From IMG/VR virus record IMGVR_UViG_3300027756_000004: DNA of 64,000 nt; one strand, written 5' to 3'. Under the pieces are notes generated by a model, which made no database searches, had not been told where the DNA came from, and saw nothing but the letters and a program-made list of their open reading frames with translations. This stretch comes from a virus. Positions 7,306 through 23,957 of this stretch are shown piece after piece (the stretch's first letter is position 1; each line of letters starts with the position of its first letter). The position numbers were made by a program, and so were the translations under genes.

Positions 7306-8313
7306 ATGTTTAAAAAAGCAGCCGTCTTTACTGACATACATTTTGGTCTGAAGAGCAACAGCATGATTCACAATCAAGACTGTGAAGAGTTTGTGGATTG
7401 GTTCATTGACCAGGCCAAACAAAACAATTGTGAAACTGGTATATTCTGTGGTGACTGGCATCACAATAGAAATTCGTTGAACTTGATGACCATGGATGTC
7501 TCCATCAAATGTTTGGAAAAACTGGGTAAGGCTTTTGAAAAATTTTATTTCTTTCCTGGCAATCACGATCTGTACTACAAAGACAAGCGTGATATTCACT
7601 CAGTGGAGTTTGCAAGATTTATTCCTGGCATCACAGTGATCACACAGACCACTACCATAGATGACACAACCTTAGTGCCTTGGTTGGTGGGAGATGAATA
7701 CAAACAGATCAAAAAAATCAAAAGCAGATACATGTTTGGTCATTTTGAATTGCCGCACTTCTTAATGAATGCCATGATAGAGATGCCAGACACTGGGTTG
7801 ATACAAGCAGTGGATTTTGTGCATCCAGAATATGTGTTCACAGGACACTTCCACAAGAGACAAACAGCAAGAAACATACATTACATTGGTAATCCCATGC
7901 CGCACAACTATGCAGATGTGAATGATGATCAGCGTGGTATGATGATCATGGAACATGGTGGCACTCCCAGATACATCAATTGGTACAATTGTCCAAGATA
8001 TTTGAAAGTAAATTTAAGTCAACTACTGAATGATGCAAAGAACATTATACTGCCCAAGATGCACTTGCAAGTGACGTTGGACATAGACATCAGCTATGAA
8101 GAAGCCAGTTTTATCAAAGAAACCTTTATAAAAGATTACAACTGCAGAGAAATAGTGCTGATTCCAGGCAAGAAAGATGATGAACTCACCAGTACATTGG
8201 ATATCACACGTTTTGAATCTGTGGACGAAATAGTCAGCAAAGAGATCAATGCTATTGAATCTGACAGTTATAATAAAAATACTCTATTAGAGATTTACAG
8301 AGACCTACAATGA
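7306..8313 (+). CDS. gp47: Recombination endonuclease subunit gp47 (Mre11/SbcD-like metallophosphoesterase)
   Basis: DIHFG, GDW, GNHD, GHF, GHFH phosphoesterase motifs. Confidence 0.95.
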   Translation: MFKKAAVFTDIHFGLKSNSMIHNQDCEEFVDWFIDQAKQNNCETGIFCGDWHHNRNSLNLMTMDVSIKCLEKLGKAFEKFYFFPGNHDLYYKDKRDIHSVEFARFIPGITVITQTTTIDDTTLVPWLVGDEYKQIKKIKSRYMFGHFELPHFLMNAMIEMPDTGLIQAVDFVHPEYVFTGHFHKRQTARNIHYIGNPMPHNYADVNDDQRGMMIMEHGGTPRYINWYNCPRYLKVNLSQLLNDAKNIILPKMHLQVTLDIDISYEEASFIKETFIKDYNCREIVLIPGKKDDELTSTLDITRFESVDEIVSKEINAIESDSYNKNTLLEIYRDLQ

Positions 8314-10088
8314 TCAAGATCAAAAGCCTCACAGTTAAAAATTTTATGAGTGTGGGCAATCAAACACAAGGCGTGAATCTAGACAAACAAAGACTCACAT
8401 TGGTGTTGGGAGAAAATTTGGATCAGGGCGGAGATGATTCTGGCAGCAGGAACGGCACAGGTAAAACCACACTGATCAATGCACTGAGTTATGGTTTATT
8501 TGGTGAAGCACTGACAAAAATACGCAGAGAGAATTTGGTCAACAAGACCAACAACAAAAACATGTTGGTCACACTAACTTTTGAAAAAGACGGTGTGAAA
8601 TATCGCATTGAAAGAGGCAGACGCCCCAACACATTGAGATACTTTATCAATGACTCGGAACAAGAGATCACTGACGAGAGTCAAGGCGACAGCAGAATGA
8701 CTCAGGCTGCTATCAATCACATGTTGGGATTATCGCATGCCATGTTCAAACACATATTGGCATTGAATACCTACACAGAGCCGTTCTTGAGCATGAGTGC
8801 CAATGATCAAAAAGACATCATAGAACAGTTGTTGGGCATCACACTGCTGAGTGAAAAAGCAGAACTGTTGAAAGATCGCATTAGAGTCAGCAAAGAAGAC
8901 ATAGCCATGGAAAATGCACGTTTGGAAGGCATTAAGATGAGCAATGAAAAGATCAAAGAAACCATTAACTCGTTGAGCAACAAGGAAAAAATTTGGAACA
9001 CACAGAAGAATTTGGATATTGAAAAATTAAATAAATCCATTAAAGAGTTAGAGTCTGTGGACATTGACAAGGAGTTGGTGGCACATCAGCTGCTGGAAGA
9101 TTGGCTCAAGATCAATAATGAATTGAAACAATTGCAAAAAGATCGCAGCAGTTTGGAAATGACACTGTTGCAGGCAGACAAAACAGTGAATAAAGTGGGC
9201 AATGATCTGGATAAACTGCATGACAAAGCCACTTGTTATGCCTGTGGTCAAGAACTGCATGATGATAAATTTTGTGAAATACAACGCAAGTTGGAAGAAG
9301 AATATGGTGAAGCAGTCAACTACAATCAAAGCATACAGGCTGAAATAGCCATAATAGATGAAGCTATCAAACTCATGGGCACACAAGACACACGTCCAGA
9401 CACATATTATGACAGCATCAAAGAAGCATATGAACACAGACAACATCTGGAAACTTACAAATCCACACTGAAAAACAAAGAAGCTGAACAGAATCCTTAT
9501 GTGGATCAGATCACAGAACTCAGCACAGAAGCACTGCAAGAACTGGACTGGAGTGAAGTAAATCGCTTGCAAACTTTAAAAGACCATCAAGAATTTTTAT
9601 TAAAATTGTTGACCAACAAGGACAGTTTTATCAGGAAGAAAATAATAGATCAAAATTTAGCATTCTTAAACAACAGGCTCACCCACTATCTCACAGCATT
9701 GGGACTGCCGCACAGTGTAATATTTAAAAATGATCTCAGTGTGCAAATCACCATGCTGGGACAGGATCTTGACTTTGACAATCTCAGCAGAGGAGAGCGT
9801 AATAGATTGATATTGGGCTTGAGCTTTGCGTTTAGAGATGTGTGGGAAAGTTTATATCAAGAGATCAATTTGCTGTTCATAGATGAATTGATTGATTCTG
9901 GATTGGACACAGCAGGTGTGGAATCATCCATTGCCATACTGAAACGCATGAGCAGGGAGCGTGGCAAGAGCATCTATCTAATCAGTCACAGAGATGAACT
10001 CATGGGTAGAGTCAACAACACACTCAAAGTGATCAAAGAAAATGGATTCACTTCCTACAGCAATTCAACTGAATTTCACGAGATATAG
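8310..10088 (+). CDS. gp46: Recombination exonuclease ATPase subunit gp46 (Rad50/SbcC-like)
   Basis: Walker A NGTGKTT, coiled coil with zinc hook CYAC, signature LSRGE, Walker B LLFIDE, ISH. Confidence 0.95.
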   Translation: MIKIKSLTVKNFMSVGNQTQGVNLDKQRLTLVLGENLDQGGDDSGSRNGTGKTTLINALSYGLFGEALTKIRRENLVNKTNNKNMLVTLTFEKDGVKYRIERGRRPNTLRYFINDSEQEITDESQGDSRMTQAAINHMLGLSHAMFKHILALNTYTEPFLSMSANDQKDIIEQLLGITLLSEKAELLKDRIRVSKEDIAMENARLEGIKMSNEKIKETINSLSNKEKIWNTQKNLDIEKLNKSIKELESVDIDKELVAHQLLEDWLKINNELKQLQKDRSSLEMTLLQADKTVNKVGNDLDKLHDKATCYACGQELHDDKFCEIQRKLEEEYGEAVNYNQSIQAEIAIIDEAIKLMGTQDTRPDTYYDSIKEAYEHRQHLETYKSTLKNKEAEQNPYVDQITELSTEALQELDWSEVNRLQTLKDHQEFLLKLLTNKDSFIRKKIIDQNLAFLNNRLTHYLTALGLPHSVIFKNDLSVQITMLGQDLDFDNLSRGERNRLILGLSFAFRDVWESLYQEINLLFIDELIDSGLDTAGVESSIAILKRMSRERGKSIYLISHRDELMGRVNNTLKVIKENGFTSYSNSTEFHEI

Positions 10089-10096
10089 GAGCACAC

Positions 10097-10297
10097 ATGG
10101 ACGACACACATGATTTATTGACCAAGGCCTACATGAACTACTTCAAATACAATGAGAAGTTTGCCAAAAGACCCAGCCGACAGAGCAAAATACAGGCTAG
10201 AAAATGGTTGAGTGAAATACGCAAACTGGGTCGCACACGCCGAGCAGAAATTGTGCGTGAATACAAACAGCACAAAGAGAAGGCCCGCACACAGTGA
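10097..10297 (+). CDS. Small basic hypothetical protein
   Basis: 66 aa with AGGAG RBS directly after gp46; ARKWLSEIRKL..TRR.EI helix. Confidence 0.7.
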   Translation: MDDTHDLLTKAYMNYFKYNEKFAKRPSRQSKIQARKWLSEIRKLGRTRRAEIVREYKQHKEKARTQ

Positions 10298-10301
10298 GCA
10301 C

Positions 10302-10386
10302 GGCGCAGCCGCTGCGGTAGACGCTATAGTTTGTACGAAGTACAAAACTACGGCGCAAAAATTTTCTGTGCCTTTTGGTACCAAAA
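10302..10386. repeat. Cluster of short inverted repeats/palindromes
   Basis: GGC-GCA-GCC (10302-10310), TTTGTAC-GAA-GTACAAA (10330-10346, extendable to ~10322-10355), perfect palindrome TTTTGGTACCAAAA (10373-10386). Confidence 0.8.
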
Positions 10387-10461
10387 CTTTTCAATCACTG
10401 CCAAAATATCACAAAGATCCAAGACTGCTGTGAACGAATTCATCACACAGTAAGTACCTGC

Positions 10462-10896
10462 ATGACGTGGATGTATCAGGGCAAATCATTGGATGCACTG
10501 CCGGAAGGCACCGAAGGATTTGTGTATCTCATCACTAATTTGGTATCTGGTCGCATGTATGTGGGCAAAAAGTTGGCCCAGTTCAAAAAATCACGTCCAC
10601 CACTCAAAGGCAAAATCAACCGACGCAGAAGCCGGGTGGAATCAGATTGGCGAGACTATTGGGGCAGCAACGAACATCTGTTGCAGGATGTGCAACAGCA
10701 GGGTGCTGATCAATTCACCCGAGAGATACTGTACATCTGTCGCAGCAGAGGCGCCATGGCATATCTGGAAGCCCGCGAACAATTTGAACGCAAAGTGTTG
10801 GAGACTGATGCATACTACAACGGCATCATCAATGTGAGAATAGGCAGCAGCAATCTACTGAGGGAAGAAATTCAAAGGCTCAAGGCACTGACATAG
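10462..10896 (+). CDS. Free-standing GIY-YIG nuclease-family protein (single domain, 144 aa)
   Basis: GFVYLITNL...RMYVGKK (GIY-YIG), DWRDYWGS, FTREIL, LE and YYN motifs; start chosen at ATG 10462, 5 nt after a TAAGTA late-promoter variant. Confidence 0.85.
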   Translation: MTWMYQGKSLDALPEGTEGFVYLITNLVSGRMYVGKKLAQFKKSRPPLKGKINRRRSRVESDWRDYWGSNEHLLQDVQQQGADQFTREILYICRSRGAMAYLEAREQFERKVLETDAYYNGIINVRIGSSNLLREEIQRLKALT

Positions 10897-11258
10897 CAAC
10901 CACACTGATCTGAAGATCCAGGAAATACGTCTCTCAAAGATGGTGAATCCTGAGTTGCACAATGAGGCAAAAACGATGGTGCTCTGTGAAACAGACACAA
11001 CACCCATATTGAGGAATTGCTTGAACAGTTCCCACAATATTCCGTAGCAATGAAGTCAGCCAAGAGGGGTATAGGGCTACCGCCCCGCAGTAGCAATGGC
11101 TGTTCAAGATGGCGTGCTCATCTCGTATGACGTCACCACTTCTCCCCGTTCTGGGAGAAGTATGGATCCACTATCTGTATGAGCGAGCAGTTGCTTCGCA
11201 ACTTGATAGAGCTACACAGTGAGAGCGCAGCGATCACTTGGACGAACTGGTTCGTCCA
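10897..11258 (+). ncRNA. Candidate structured non-coding RNA or origin-associated structured element (~360 nt)
   Basis: No convincing ORF. Many nested helices: CAGGA/TCCTG, TCTGT-GAA-ACAGA, ATATTG..GGAATTG/CAGTTCC..CAATAT, CAGCCA/TGGCTG, ACTTCTCCC/GGGAGAAGT, AGTTGC/GCAACT, TGGACGAAC/GTTCGTCCA; possible pseudoknot CTTGAA/TTCAAG. Strand is assumed. Confidence 0.5.
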
Positions 11259-11387
11259 CTACTTGTGTTTGGGTTCACGCTGTTTGGATTGTCTTTTTAC
11301 TAGATCTCGTTCGTCACTGTCTATGATATACCAAGCCACTCCAATGATCAACAACAGTGTGGCAATATTCAATATGTATGCAATCAT
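11259..11387 (-). CDS. Small single-pass membrane protein (42 aa)
   Basis: MIAYILNIATLLLIIGVAWYII hydrophobic stretch plus basic tail; AAAGGA RBS upstream of ATG 11387. Confidence 0.55.
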   Translation of the reverse strand: MIAYILNIATLLLIIGVAWYIIDSDERDLVKRQSKQREPKHK

Positions 11388-11407
11388 GATATAATATCCT
11401 TTGGCAG

Positions 11408-11998
11408 TTAGTGTTGCAATTGTGCCAGTGCTAGGGCAGCGTCCTGCGCTAGGTTGGGATCGAATTCGGTCACTGTGTGCCACAGATTTTCTTGCGCGGG
11501 TGCTGATCGCACCCTGTACAGATCAGTGTGTGGCCAGGATCTCACTTGCAACGCCTGCAGCACAGCATGACTGTACACATGCACACTCCGAGGCTGCATG
11601 CTCAGCAATTGATCAATGTTGGTTTGATTCAACACACTGTGATAGGTTTGAATTTCAGTGACTCTAGAATCTTCAGCAAAGTTTCTGGCAAAGTGGTCGC
11701 CGCGCAGCCACGTGGTGTTGGTGTGTATCACCACATCTTCTGCTCTCAGTCTGCAACGTATGTGAACAAATCCCAGTCGTCTCAATCTTTCTGCAGTGTG
11801 TCTGCCCACGCATTGTATTTCATAGGGCAGCAGTGCTGTGAGCGGATGTTGATAGTGTTGGATGGCAGCAATGTGTGTGATCAATAAGCATTGAGTCCCA
11901 GCAGCCACATGCGAAACTGCTTGAGTGGTGACACAAGGCAGCCACATGCTGTCGTCAGGCATGGTGTGATTCACGTTGCTTTGTGTAAACACTCTCAT
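11408..11998 (-). CDS. hemD: Uroporphyrinogen-III synthase-like (HemD fold), divergent
   Basis: HemD-like motifs in the correct order: W.PC.TT (hPhh.h), LLITH..AI (hhFTS.NAV), CVGRHTAERLRRLGF (AVG..TA..L...GF), WLRGD (hhRG.), EIQTYHSV (EhhhY.T), VHVYSHAVL (hhF.SPS.V). Start set at ATG 11998. Confidence 0.6.
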   Translation of the reverse strand: MRVFTQSNVNHTMPDDSMWLPCVTTQAVSHVAAGTQCLLITHIAAIQHYQHPLTALLPYEIQCVGRHTAERLRRLGFVHIRCRLRAEDVVIHTNTTWLRGDHFARNFAEDSRVTEIQTYHSVLNQTNIDQLLSMQPRSVHVYSHAVLQALQVRSWPHTDLYRVRSAPAQENLWHTVTEFDPNLAQDAALALAQLQH

Positions 11999-12006
11999 CG
12001 TAAGAT

Positions 12007-12013
12007 TATTTAC
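12007..12013 (-). promoter_or_regulatory. Late-promoter-like GTAAATA upstream of hemD-like gene
   Basis: TATTTAC on + strand, 8 nt before ATG 11998. Confidence 0.5.
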
Positions 12014-12069
12014 TTGCAGACTGCACACATTAAAATATATTATTTGGTTCTTGGGTGTTTGCTGGGCTG

Positions 12070-12264
12070 TTAAAAGAATGGCAAGCCGCTTTTTTTGGTG
12101 GTTTCTAAATTTTCTTTGATGATCTTGCCTATGATTTCGCGATCTTCATAGCTGATCATGAAAAGGTCATCCACGCTGAGACTGCCACGCATGTACCAGG
12201 CCATTTTGAACAAATCCATTTTGAAATTTTTGGTTTCATTCTCCATGTCCTTGACTTCTTGCAA
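12070..12264 (-). CDS. Small baseplate/tail-assembly protein; likely the -1-frameshifted C-terminal extension of the upstream gp26-like protein
   Basis: WYMRG.LS.DD.F..S.EDREII..II.EN.ETTKKSGLPFF; weak TTG start; frame stays open back through a T TTT TTC slippery site at 12300-12306. Confidence 0.7.
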   Translation of the reverse strand: MQEVKDMENETKNFKMDLFKMAWYMRGSLSVDDLFMISYEDREIIGKIIKENLETTKKSGLPFF

Positions 12265-12293
12265 AATAGTCGCTAGAGAGCTGGGTAGAATTT

Positions 12294-13160
12294 TTATGCG
12301 AAAAAATTTGACTGATCGAATGTCACGGGTACCTCAAAACTTGCAGGGGCGCCCGCTTTTATATCTTCAGCTGTGCTGGCCACTTTGATGGGTTTGATGC
12401 TGAAAGATTCTCTTTGTTTTTGCACATGAGCCATAATGGCAGCATAAAAGTTTTTTTCTGATTTAGCAATGAATTCAGTGATGTGTGTGGGATCAGTGAC
12501 CACCTCTCCATCCACGGCAATGCTGACCACACTGTCGGCCACCATGGCTATGGTGATGTCTGTGAGTTTTCTAAAGCTCTGTTGAAACATTGACAACTTG
12601 GTTTGTTCATCTATTTTGTCGTCATTGACCACATTGATTATTCTTTGTTCTTCAAAAGACTTGACAGCACCTGCAGTGAATTCTTTGTAGTTGATGGGTT
12701 TCAAAGTCACGGTCAAGGCACCTATGTTCACAGTGTCCACAAACGTTCCCATCATGAGATCATCCAAGGCCAAACGCAGATCCATGCTGTAGTCTCGTTT
12801 GATAGTGGTGTTGGGCACATTGATGTTGACATCCATGCTTTCACCATAGGTGGCAATTCTGATGGCAATCAGCACAGCATCCAAATCAATGCTGGGCATC
12901 AGCCAAGCATTCTTAATGTTGGGCACACAGCTTTGTATCACATCCACAGTGGCCTGACCATTCATCAGTGCATCCGGAGTTTTGAACAACAATTCGTCCT
13001 TGGCAGTCATGGCATACACTGGCAGTTCACCATTGGCTGGCATTTCCAATGTGCCCGCTGGATAAAACTTGCCTCTGCTGGGCAATCGCATGTAGTTTTT
13101 GACCTGTCTAAAATACTTCTGTAAAGGATTGCTGCCCTGTTTGATTTGATTTTCTACCAT
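12294..13160 (-). CDS. gp26: Baseplate hub assembly/tail assembly chaperone, gp26-like
   Basis: NPL.KYFRQ...Y.RLPS.G.FYP, ELPVY.MTAKDE..FKTPDAL.NG, IDLDAVL.AIR.ATYG motifs of the T4 gp26-like family. Confidence 0.75.
   Translation of the reverse strand: MVENQIKQGSNPLQKYFRQVKNYMRLPSRGKFYPAGTLEMPANGELPVYAMTAKDELLFKTPDALMNGQATVDVIQSCVPNIKNAWLMPSIDLDAVLIAIRIATYGESMDVNINVPNTTIKRDYSMDLRLALDDLMMGTFVDTVNIGALTVTLKPINYKEFTAGAVKSFEEQRIINVVNDDKIDEQTKLSMFQQSFRKLTDITIAMVADSVVSIAVDGEVVTDPTHITEFIAKSEKNFYAAIMAHVQKQRESFSIKPIKVASTAEDIKAGAPASFEVPVTFDQSNFFA
12300..12306 (-). other. Putative -1 ribosomal frameshift heptamer T TTT TTC
   Basis: Minus-strand ...TCA AAT TTT TTC GCA TAA; the -1 frame reads RIKILPSSLATILQEVKDMENE..., in frame with ORF 12070-12264. 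Confidence 0.65.
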
Positions 13161-23488: not shown

Positions 23489-23570
23489 ATAACTGTGCTT
23501 CAAAAATAGTTTTGAAGTTTATGCGGTTTAACCCACCGCGTATAACATAGAACGTTACAGGAGAAAACAA
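23485..23570 (+). promoter_or_regulatory. Late promoter plus structured 5' leader
   Basis: ATAAATA (23485-23491); hairpins CTTCAAAA/TTTTGAAG (23498-23517) and TATGCGGT/ACCGCGTA (23520-23542); AGGAG RBS (23559-23563). Confidence 0.55.
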
Positions 23571-23957
23571 ATGGGAAGACCAATAAACAAAACAAAACTA
23601 GGCACATACACAGGTGCCATAGGTATAAGATGTGAAGCCTACATAGGTGGATCAAATCAAAGTGATGTGTTCATTGTGAAACAAGTTGGATCTAAAAGAT
23701 TCAAAGTTCAAGATACATCAGCCTCTACAACAGCAAGAGCCAAATTAGTTGCAACCACACCAGCAGCTCTAGGAGAAATGAGAGTGACTGGTTATGTTGC
23801 AGGATCTGCATCAGGCAACTTGTCCACTATGGGCGGTACTGCCAAATATGCGGCTAAAATAACTCAACGCAGATTTATTGCCAGCACTGGTGATAGATAC
23901 AAATGGACACTTGTGAACGATTCCACAAGAGATTACATTGAATTGACTGCTATATAA
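23571..23957 (+). CDS. Small virion structural protein (possible head decoration)
   Basis: 128 aa, MGRPINK N-terminus, FIVKQ.GSKRF.V motif; own late promoter, strong RBS and 3' hairpin. Confidence 0.6.
   Translation: MGRPINKTKLGTYTGAIGIRCEAYIGGSNQSDVFIVKQVGSKRFKVQDTSASTTARAKLVATTPAALGEMRVTGYVAGSASGNLSTMGGTAKYAAKITQRRFIASTGDRYKWTLVNDSTRDYIELTAI

Follow-up and report, generated by a model that had tools for sequence, protein, structure and literature searches.

A conserved, pseudoknot-rich non-coding RNA family adjoining small nuclease genes in uncultured T4-like phages

The DNA of an uncultured freshwater T4-like myovirus contains a long gap between two oppositely oriented sets of genes, immediately behind a gene for a small nuclease. 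Does this gap encode a functional RNA and, if it does, is the RNA a partner of the nuclease or only its neighbor? The window, as the whole stretch of DNA that was analysed is called here, is 64,000 nucleotides long (IMG/VR record IMGVR_UViG_3300027756_000004). An earlier note, made from the letters of the window alone, had read the gap as a conserved phage RNA outside the known families that might form an RNP with the nuclease or serve as its specificity subunit, or that might prime replication.

The gp47-like and gp46-like genes (7306-10088) are followed by a 66-aa ORF and then by the gene of a 144-aa single-domain GIY-YIG nuclease (10462..10896, plus strand). The TAG stop codon of this gene (10894-96) and the first helix of the RNA overlap. 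A genuine gap follows. Beyond the end of the nuclease ORF at 10896, the next 350-450 nt contain no ORF common to the relatives, and the stop-free frames in 33 RNAs are 39-122 codons long, with no frame in common. The whole structured RNA occupies 10896..11258 on the plus strand and is present in a single copy in the window (nhmmer envelope 10892-11273, E 2e-84). Its last hairpin is abutted by the stop codon of a convergent small membrane-protein ORF (11259..11387, minus strand; 42 aa from the ATG at 11387), which has no Pfam or PHROG family match; a comparable minus-strand ORF is seen in close relatives. A 206-aa ORF (11408-12028, minus strand), conserved in many relatives, comes next and is followed by the baseplate-hub gene on the same strand, so that by the ORF list the RNA locus is a boundary of convergent transcription. 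The 206-aa ORF matches no Pfam or PHROG family and gives a faint NCBIfam hint of uroporphyrinogen-III synthase (E 0.068). Phages in GenBank have weak similarity to the window, in gp46/47 only. There is a second gap, 164 nt long, between the 66-aa ORF and the nuclease start (10298-10461). It may be a processing site or a promoter region, and it has no contig cover in the four metatranscriptomes described below.

The thermodynamic stability of the RNA is by itself weak evidence and not decisive, the MFE z-score being -2.16 for the plus strand and -2.00 for the minus strand. The proof is given by comparison. At least 579 relatives of the nuclease are present in IMG/VR. Eighty nuclease loci were used together with 20 loci reached via the baseplate gene, and nearly all loci have 350-450 nt free of ORFs behind the nuclease stop codon. 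An nhmmer profile built from 28 of the gap sequences matches 79 of the 100 loci. Thirty-three representatives with less than 88% identity were aligned using plain MAFFT (alignment A1), and a structure of 95 pairs in 19 runs, including three pseudoknots, was evaluated on this alignment. In A1 (n=33), 80.9% of the cells are paired, compared to 38-46% when the partners are slid by 1-3 columns, although manual definition of the structure on a single reference sequence gives it some advantage over the slid controls. Both sides change in 73 of the 95 pairs. The covariation score is 0.384, compared to 0.07-0.14 for the slid partners, and none of 500 shuffles matches any of these measures. An independent mutual-information scan of 78 unique sequences ranks the same Watson-Crick pairs at the top. 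There are 237 G-U or U-G cells compared to 124 A-C or C-A cells, and several pairs are mostly G-U, showing that the RNA is read from the plus strand. These results confirm that 10896-11258 on the plus strand of the window is one copy of a conserved folded RNA family with members of 360-490 nt. The proposal of a conserved phage RNA outside the known families is therefore borne out by the covariation and by the lack of an Rfam match; covariation analysis, a cmscan search against Rfam and a search for a transcript were among the checks suggested in the earlier note.

The family structure consists of 17 helices, two of which, H5 and H12, are absent from the window copy. The 5' domain (10896..10958) is closed by H1, GCAAC/GTTGC (10896-900/10954-58). 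The G of the stop codon is part of this helix, which was missed by the earlier note. H1 is 94.2% paired, and all five of its pairs change on both sides. It encloses the hairpin H2 (GATC/GATC, 10907-10/10915-18; 100% paired in the 24 sequences aligned there) and H3 (CAGGA/TCCTG, 10919-23/10948-52; 80.9% paired, with changes on both sides in 4/4 pairs). Compensatory changes (TCT/AGA, CCC/GGG, GTT/AAC) are visible in the inner hairpin of H3, CGTCT/AGATG (10928-32/10938-42), which was left uncounted because the alignment is ragged there. The next element (10978..11004) has invariant columns. It is composed of H6, GGTG/CACC (10978-81/11001-04; 91.6% paired, up to four pair types), closing the near-invariant motif GCTCTGTGAAAMAGAYACAAC, and of H7, TCTGT/ACAGA, the TCT/AGA core of which never varies and is thus uninformative for covariation. 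The long stem H8 (11006-11/11035-40 and 11013-19/11026-32) has both-side changes in all eight pairs. Its loop CTTGAA (11020-25) forms the pseudoknot PK1 with TTCAAG (11103-08), in which 79.6% of the cells are paired and all six pairs change on both sides; the top pairs of the mutual-information scan, 11023-24/11103-04, belong here and occur as four Watson-Crick types.

The center of the molecule is a nested pseudoknot core (11043..11102), formed by H9 and H11 together with H10. H9, CGTAGC/GCTAC(C)G (11043-48/11076-82), is 100% paired, and its mutual-information pairs 11045-48/11076-79 are all Watson-Crick. It is interleaved with H11, GGGG/CCCC (11066-69/11083-86; 93.9% paired), creating a second pseudoknot at 11043-86 that the earlier note had overlooked. 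H10, CAGCCA/TGGCTG (11057-62/11097-102), is 82.3% paired, with both-side changes in the four pairs counted. In many lineages the 3' strand of H10 is also complementary to a GAAG-like word within the twin module 1 loop (positions 11098/11115: CG 29, UA 22, GU 9 by mutual information; A1 columns 401-404 versus 285-288; 11098 with 11059). This second complementarity could reflect either an alternative pairing or an echo of the phylogeny.

The core is followed by two similar modules. Twin module 1 (11109..11133) contains an invariant TGG (11110-12) and the octamer GTATGACG (11125-32), and twin module 2 (11162..11185) contains an invariant TGG (11163-65) and the octamer GTATGAGC (11177-84). Between them is the hairpin H14, ACTTCTCCC/GGGAGAAGT (11138..11161), which is 82.8% paired; three of its pairs change on both sides and four on one side. 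A tentative pseudoknot of the majority type, PK-A, would pair CTCAA in the module-2 loop with TTGAG in the internal loop of H3; it is 60.6% paired overall, and 19-24 of the 33 representatives have a standard pair at each of its five positions. Three 3' hairpins (11189..11257) complete the RNA: H15, AGTTGC/GCAACT (11189-94/11198-203); H16, AGTGA/TCACT (11218-22/11234-38), with the conserved loop GAGCG..AGCGA; and H17, GGACGAA/TTCGTCC (11240-46/11251-57). In the 3' hairpin region, run 15 is 81.5% paired with both-side changes in 5/5 pairs, runs 17 and 18 are 65-70% paired, and run 19 is 52% paired owing to the poor alignment there. There is no T-run after the RNA, so that no intrinsic terminator was called on the plus strand after the last hairpin, and the promoter and terminator scan found nothing on the plus strand near the RNA.

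Most of what had been discerned from the letters alone agrees well with this structure. Of the eight helices in the earlier note seven hold, including the loop-loop pseudoknot, but GCTCAT/ATGAGC is not general: it is 61.7% paired compared to 26-44% for slid partners, and four of its six pairs are unpaired in 14-19 of the 33 sequences. It does pair within the window's own lineage. The extent given there, 10897..11190, lies within the RNA but falls short at the 3' end, where three more hairpins reach 11257.

The twin modules have the strongest non-Watson-Crick covariations in the molecule, involving up to four positions. The modules are 47-67 nt apart and flank H14, and each consists of an invariant UGG and, about 10 nt further on, the consensus (A/U)CU(C)-RNAURAN. 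The variable positions of the octamer are alike in both copies of one RNA but different between lineages, the variants being GUAUGA, GCAUGAU, ACAUGAU, AGAUGAU, AGAUAAU, GGAUAAU, GGAUGAA and GGAUGAG. This identity covariation is seen at positions 11125/11177 (GG 46, AA 31), 11126/11178 (CC 47, GG 19, TT 11) and 11129/11181 (GG 70, AA 7). The covarying positions have no complementary partner anywhere within the RNA. Pairing of the octamers with each other was rejected as they are self-complementary in only part of the lineages, and a hairpin AUGGY/RYAU in module 1 was rejected as it is without covariation. The octamer is not enriched as a dispersed site elsewhere in the window. The spacing of the modules varies continuously over the 47-67 nt range, so there is no helical phasing, and the variants of the motif do not sort by nuclease type. 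We infer from these sequence patterns that the twin modules are probably two binding sites, or two processing or cutting sites, for one partner, and their concerted change provides a concrete handle for identifying it.

The RNA is transcribed. In six metatranscriptome runs from lakes, 64-77% of the words sampled from 10300-11500 are present, and contigs were mapped for four runs from four studies. Each of the four has a contig that starts within the nuclease ORF (at 10479, 10480, 10512 or 10585), bridges the nuclease stop codon and extends into the RNA as far as 11113-11336, at a depth of 26-51, although contigs carry neither strand, true ends nor level. The depth over 9800-10470 is 0-3.6, and the uncovered parts of 9800-12300 are uninformative. 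The transcript sought by the earlier note is thus found in four lake runs, and the RNA is co-transcribed as a 3' continuation of the upstream ORF. No joints are seen in the RNA contigs. Two of the contigs start at 10479-80, 17 nt inside the nuclease ORF, and one of these carries adapter sequence at the junction. Three contigs end at 11113-11134, level with or just past the first twin motif and short of the hairpin at 11138-61, and the fourth reaches 11336. The contigs downstream of these ends are 3-10 times shallower. The ends at 11132 and 11134, seen in two runs, give a weak hint that the 3' end of an RNA is near 11132.

The RNA is present in 72 of the 75 nuclease loci that have at least 450 nt of downstream DNA, including loci whose nucleases are only 46% identical. 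A 20-nt motif from the GCTCTGTGAAAMAGAYACAAC region was found in at least 117 viral contigs, every one of which has the RNA. The carriers are uncultured T4-like myoviruses from lakes and oceans. The RNA is abundant in two major aquatic biomes, and it is expressed in lake metatranscriptomes. A cmscan of the window against Rfam 15 (4227 families) gave no match here at the gathering score, and there was none over 10000-12300 at E values up to 10. For nine relatives searched at E up to 1 the single match was RF01718, and RF01718, in a sister lineage only, was also the sole match over the loci of 29 relatives besides the window. ARAGORN was negative for tRNA and tmRNA in the window and in 33 loci, and no Rfam tmRNA match was found.

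RF01718 (Polynucleobacter-1) matches six sister loci (L049, L050, L051, L055, L056 and L075) with 60-87 bits. The match, 141 nt long, begins no more than 80 nt from the point where the same GIY-YIG gene stops, and next comes the 3' core known from the window, with the pseudoknot, the twin modules and the 3' hairpins (profile positions 179-362). The RNA of the window scores below the RF01718 gathering score of 37 bits and has no match to this model even at E 10. Because RF01718 precedes a shared 3' core, the family has alternative 5' domains, RF01718 being a fragment of one variant and limited to a 5' third of the sister RNA. Position, 3' core and freshwater and estuary habitat are common to both, but the 5' domain of the window RNA differs in architecture. 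According to the available part of its description, Polynucleobacter-1 occurs in Burkholderiales and in fresh water and estuary samples and is a possible cis-regulatory element (Weinberg et al. 2010, PMC2864571). This orphan motif is now placed inside a larger phage RNA.

The RNA family is thus new, undescribed, large, pseudoknot-rich and non-coding. Large RNAs with so much conserved tertiary structure are, to our knowledge, rare, and among those whose role is understood we know only ribozymes, riboswitches and RNP cores. A description of this RNA was not found in the literature. GOLLD, ROOL, OLE and raiA, in the accessible parts of their accounts, are alike in length (hundreds of nucleotides), in having many covarying helices and pseudoknots, in phage carriage, in the lack of a known function and in having been discovered by comparison. 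However, the present RNA is shorter (360-490 nt), directly adjoins an ORF in most of the loci and is usually linked to a nuclease gene, and the RNA region has no match to the Rfam models of GOLLD, ROOL, OLE, raiA or HEARO. Pieces of it may be contained in a catalogue of 10,000 viral candidate RNAs, judging from the available part of that report (PMC10690425).

The nuclease belongs to a homing-endonuclease family (PF19835, SegE_GIY-YIG, E 7.2e-33; phrog_447, E 1.3e-36). The PF19835 match spans residues 3-123 of 144, and the mean column identity among 12 homologues is 78%. What the earlier note took for a basic insert is a stretch that is invariant in the 12 homologues and lies inside the PF19835 match. 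The other remark made there on the protein, that it has no C-terminal DNA-recognition modules, holds, as neither the Pfam search nor the AF2 model contains an extra domain. The best PDB fold for the AF2 model (pLDDT 81) is the I-TevI catalytic domain, with a weak E value of 0.2, and a sequence search of solved structures gave no match. The group I intron endonuclease family TIGR01453 scores 24.5 bits, which is under its cut-off. Its homologues in S-SM2 and Melnitz lie next to nrd genes, and the nuclease may be a positional counterpart of T4 endonuclease II.

The association of the two genes turned out to be one-sided. Nine of the 117 motif loci listed have too little upstream DNA, leaving 108 that could be assessed, with a flank of 900 nt viewed. 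Among these listed matches, the gene upstream of the RNA encodes a GIY-YIG nuclease in 70/108, a PD-(D/E)XK endonuclease in 20/108 and other products in 18/108, so that a small nuclease is upstream in 90/108. The PD-(D/E)XK endonuclease has 168-180 aa (PF24608, E down to 4.5e-28), and its gene ends no more than about 130 nt from where the RNA match starts. The upstream type requires at least 15 changes on a tree of 96 RNAs, compared to 30.6 after shuffling, and the starred branches force 6-7 changes per upstream type, the tree being a quick FastTree with several long branches. In three sister pairs the DNA similarity begins at the 5' end of the RNA. Thus L161, with a GIY-YIG gene, and L180, with an unrelated 261-aa ORF, have 92.6% identity over the 401-nt RNA only and different genes on both flanks. 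The RNA is a discrete module, and its 5' end is a recombination boundary. The repeated upstream swaps, together with homology that begins at the 5' end, make the RNA the constant, exchangeable unit, which moves from one phage genome to another and is associated with small nucleases of two folds. The nuclease clade is tied to the RNA (72/75), but the reverse does not hold. A one-sided association of this kind is what free-standing homing endonuclease genes show with the genes they target. A cofactor shared by alternative nucleases would fit as well, and the strength of the association leaves room for a functional link between RNA and nuclease.

An RNP, in which the RNA binds a nuclease that lacks a DNA-binding domain and targets, activates or restrains it, with the PD-(D/E)XK enzyme as an alternative effector, would explain why the RNA lies directly 3' of the nuclease ORF in one transcript and why it occurs in nearly every locus of this nuclease clade. 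It would also suit the presence of small single-domain nucleases of two unrelated folds upstream of most of the RNAs, and the invariant basic loop of the nuclease could bind nucleic acid. However, an unrelated nuclease is upstream in 20/108 loci and none is found directly upstream in 18/108, the upstream gene differs between sister RNAs, and the twin-motif variants are not sorted by nuclease type. Nor was a guide-like segment found: the only unpaired variable stretch of the window RNA, the linker at 11203-18, has no second match in the window. The proposal of the earlier note that the RNA is an RNP component or specificity subunit of the nuclease thus loses ground, and we consider it improbable. 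The omega RNA or reRNA of TnpB and IscB, in the portions of their descriptions available, is likewise a structured RNA, encoded where a small nuclease gene ends or directly behind it. There the folds are RuvC/HNH, whereas here they are GIY-YIG and PD-(D/E)XK; neither transposon ends nor a guide segment turned up here, the RNA also occurs without a nuclease, and the obligate pairing with one nuclease family that marks OMEGA-like systems is not observed. A broader version, a shared cofactor that docks two nuclease families without DNA-binding domains via the twin motifs, provides them with target choice or activation and would be an RNA-directed, cassette-exchanged system outside RuvC/HNH, is very improbable.

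As a cis-acting 3' UTR, a folded cap would guard the upstream early mRNA from 3'-5' decay or would set its 3' end or processing. The RNA directly follows a same-strand ORF in most of the loci examined, and its first helix includes the stop codon; the nearest upstream ORF (at least 45 aa) is on the opposite strand in 4 of 33 nuclease-less loci (L128, L132, L138 and L144). In 4/4 runs the high-depth contig is made up of the ORF and the first two thirds of the RNA, and contig 5' ends inside the ORF at 10479-80 would fit a decay intermediate held by a 3' structure. Nevertheless, seventeen helices, three pseudoknots and long invariant single strands far exceed the needs of 3' protection, and the same RNA follows unrelated upstream genes and moves as a module, which makes this function unlikely. 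The RNA could instead be a replication-origin transcript that hybridises where it is encoded and, once cut, primes DNA synthesis, like RNA II of ColE1, a folded transcript that acts at its own locus and is cut by a nuclease. The twin repeats would then be iteron-like or cleavage sites and the adjacent nuclease the processing enzyme. Direct repeats that evolve in concert typically mark sites recognised by a single protein, the 3' end of an RNA may lie just past the first octamer (11132 and 11134, in two studies), a nuclease gene adjoins the RNA, and the site is at a convergent-transcription boundary. Against this, there are only two repeats, their 47-67 nt spacing is unphased, the fold is far more complex than that of RNA II, and the compositional shift at the site is accounted for by the switch of gene orientation. 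We consider an origin transcript unlikely. GIY-YIG and PD-(D/E)XK folds both occur as intron homing endonucleases, and the RNA has a P3/P7-like interleaved pseudoknot, module-like mobility and sharp boundaries, which could point to a ribozyme or to the relic of an intron-like mobile element. But no intron or ribozyme of Rfam is matched in the window at E up to 10 or in nine relatives at E up to 1, there is no equivalent of P4-P6 or P8 between the pseudoknot strands, and the RNA contigs are without joints. Flanking exons are lacking because the downstream genes are convergent. The Intron_gpI match, the exons and the P4-P6/P8 core of group I introns are thus all missing, and a ribozyme or an intron-like relic is very improbable.

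The explanation that we prefer, and to which we give an about even chance of being right, is an autonomous, exchangeable gene for a structured non-coding RNA, co-transcribed with the upstream gene, beside which small Seg-like nucleases settle. The RNA would act by itself as a stable scaffold. Its invariant unpaired nucleotides and the twin modules (TGG ... RNAURAN) would be twin docking or processing sites, with one protein or nucleic acid, present in two copies, as their partner. The GIY-YIG and PD-(D/E)XK genes would be Seg-like free-standing endonuclease genes that settle beside a conserved RNA gene, and their products would not be obligate subunits of the RNA. SegB of T4 settles beside tRNA genes likewise, also as a small SegE-family GIY-YIG gene next to structured-RNA genes. 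Presence/absence polymorphism of the nuclease beside the RNA and exchange of the flanks, as expected of Seg-like genes, are both observed here: the nuclease adjoins the RNA in 72/75 loci, the RNA also occurs without it, and the swap boundary is sharp. Unlike the T4 Seg proteins, the protein of the window has 144 aa, lacks a C-terminal DNA-binding region and is highly conserved over deep divergence. Several findings speak against the autonomous RNA gene. The clade is almost always with the RNA (72/75) and a nuclease is upstream in 90/108, which fits a partnership too; 78% column identity and the absence of a separate DNA-binding domain are unusual for a homing enzyme; and the RNA abuts the stop codon without room for a promoter of its own, which fits a cis-acting 3' UTR.

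Cultured phages and cellular genomes yielded at most traces of the family. A blastn search of three divergent RNAs against cultured phages in GenBank found nothing. The nearest cultured homologue of the nuclease, 59.6% identical, is in Methylophilales phage Melnitz-3, in which the nhmmer profile has no match and the gap after the nuclease is 148 nt long, with short remnants. This gap (L101, 3439-3586) has look-alikes of the RNA ends, CATAGCAAC..GTTG, an ATCTGCC.GA stretch and TTTGAGCG, and the body is absent; it could be a reduced or decayed copy of the RNA. The tmRNA of Melnitz, in the available part of its description, is a different gene, gene 86 (PMC9004378). Cyanophage homologues of the nuclease (<41% identity) are followed by genes or a tRNA array. 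In Synechococcus phage S-SM2 (L103, 2682-4875) the homologue lies after nrdA/nrdB and before an array of eight tRNAs, another case in which this nuclease family adjoins structured-RNA genes. Cellular genomes gave six pattern matches, with partial RNA on two small MAG contigs only. The H6/H7 motif alone is present in a 7-kb scaffold of the cultured alphaproteobacterium Terasakiella pusilla DSM 6293 (L227, 2485-2528), where the nhmmer match is limited to profile positions 85-129. Elsewhere in the window, at 23499-23573 on the plus strand, the Rfam freshwater-2 motif (RF02980), the sole match of the window in the cmscan at the gathering score, scores 57.5 bits, compared to a gathering score of 49.9, and ends where the ORF at 23571-23957 starts.
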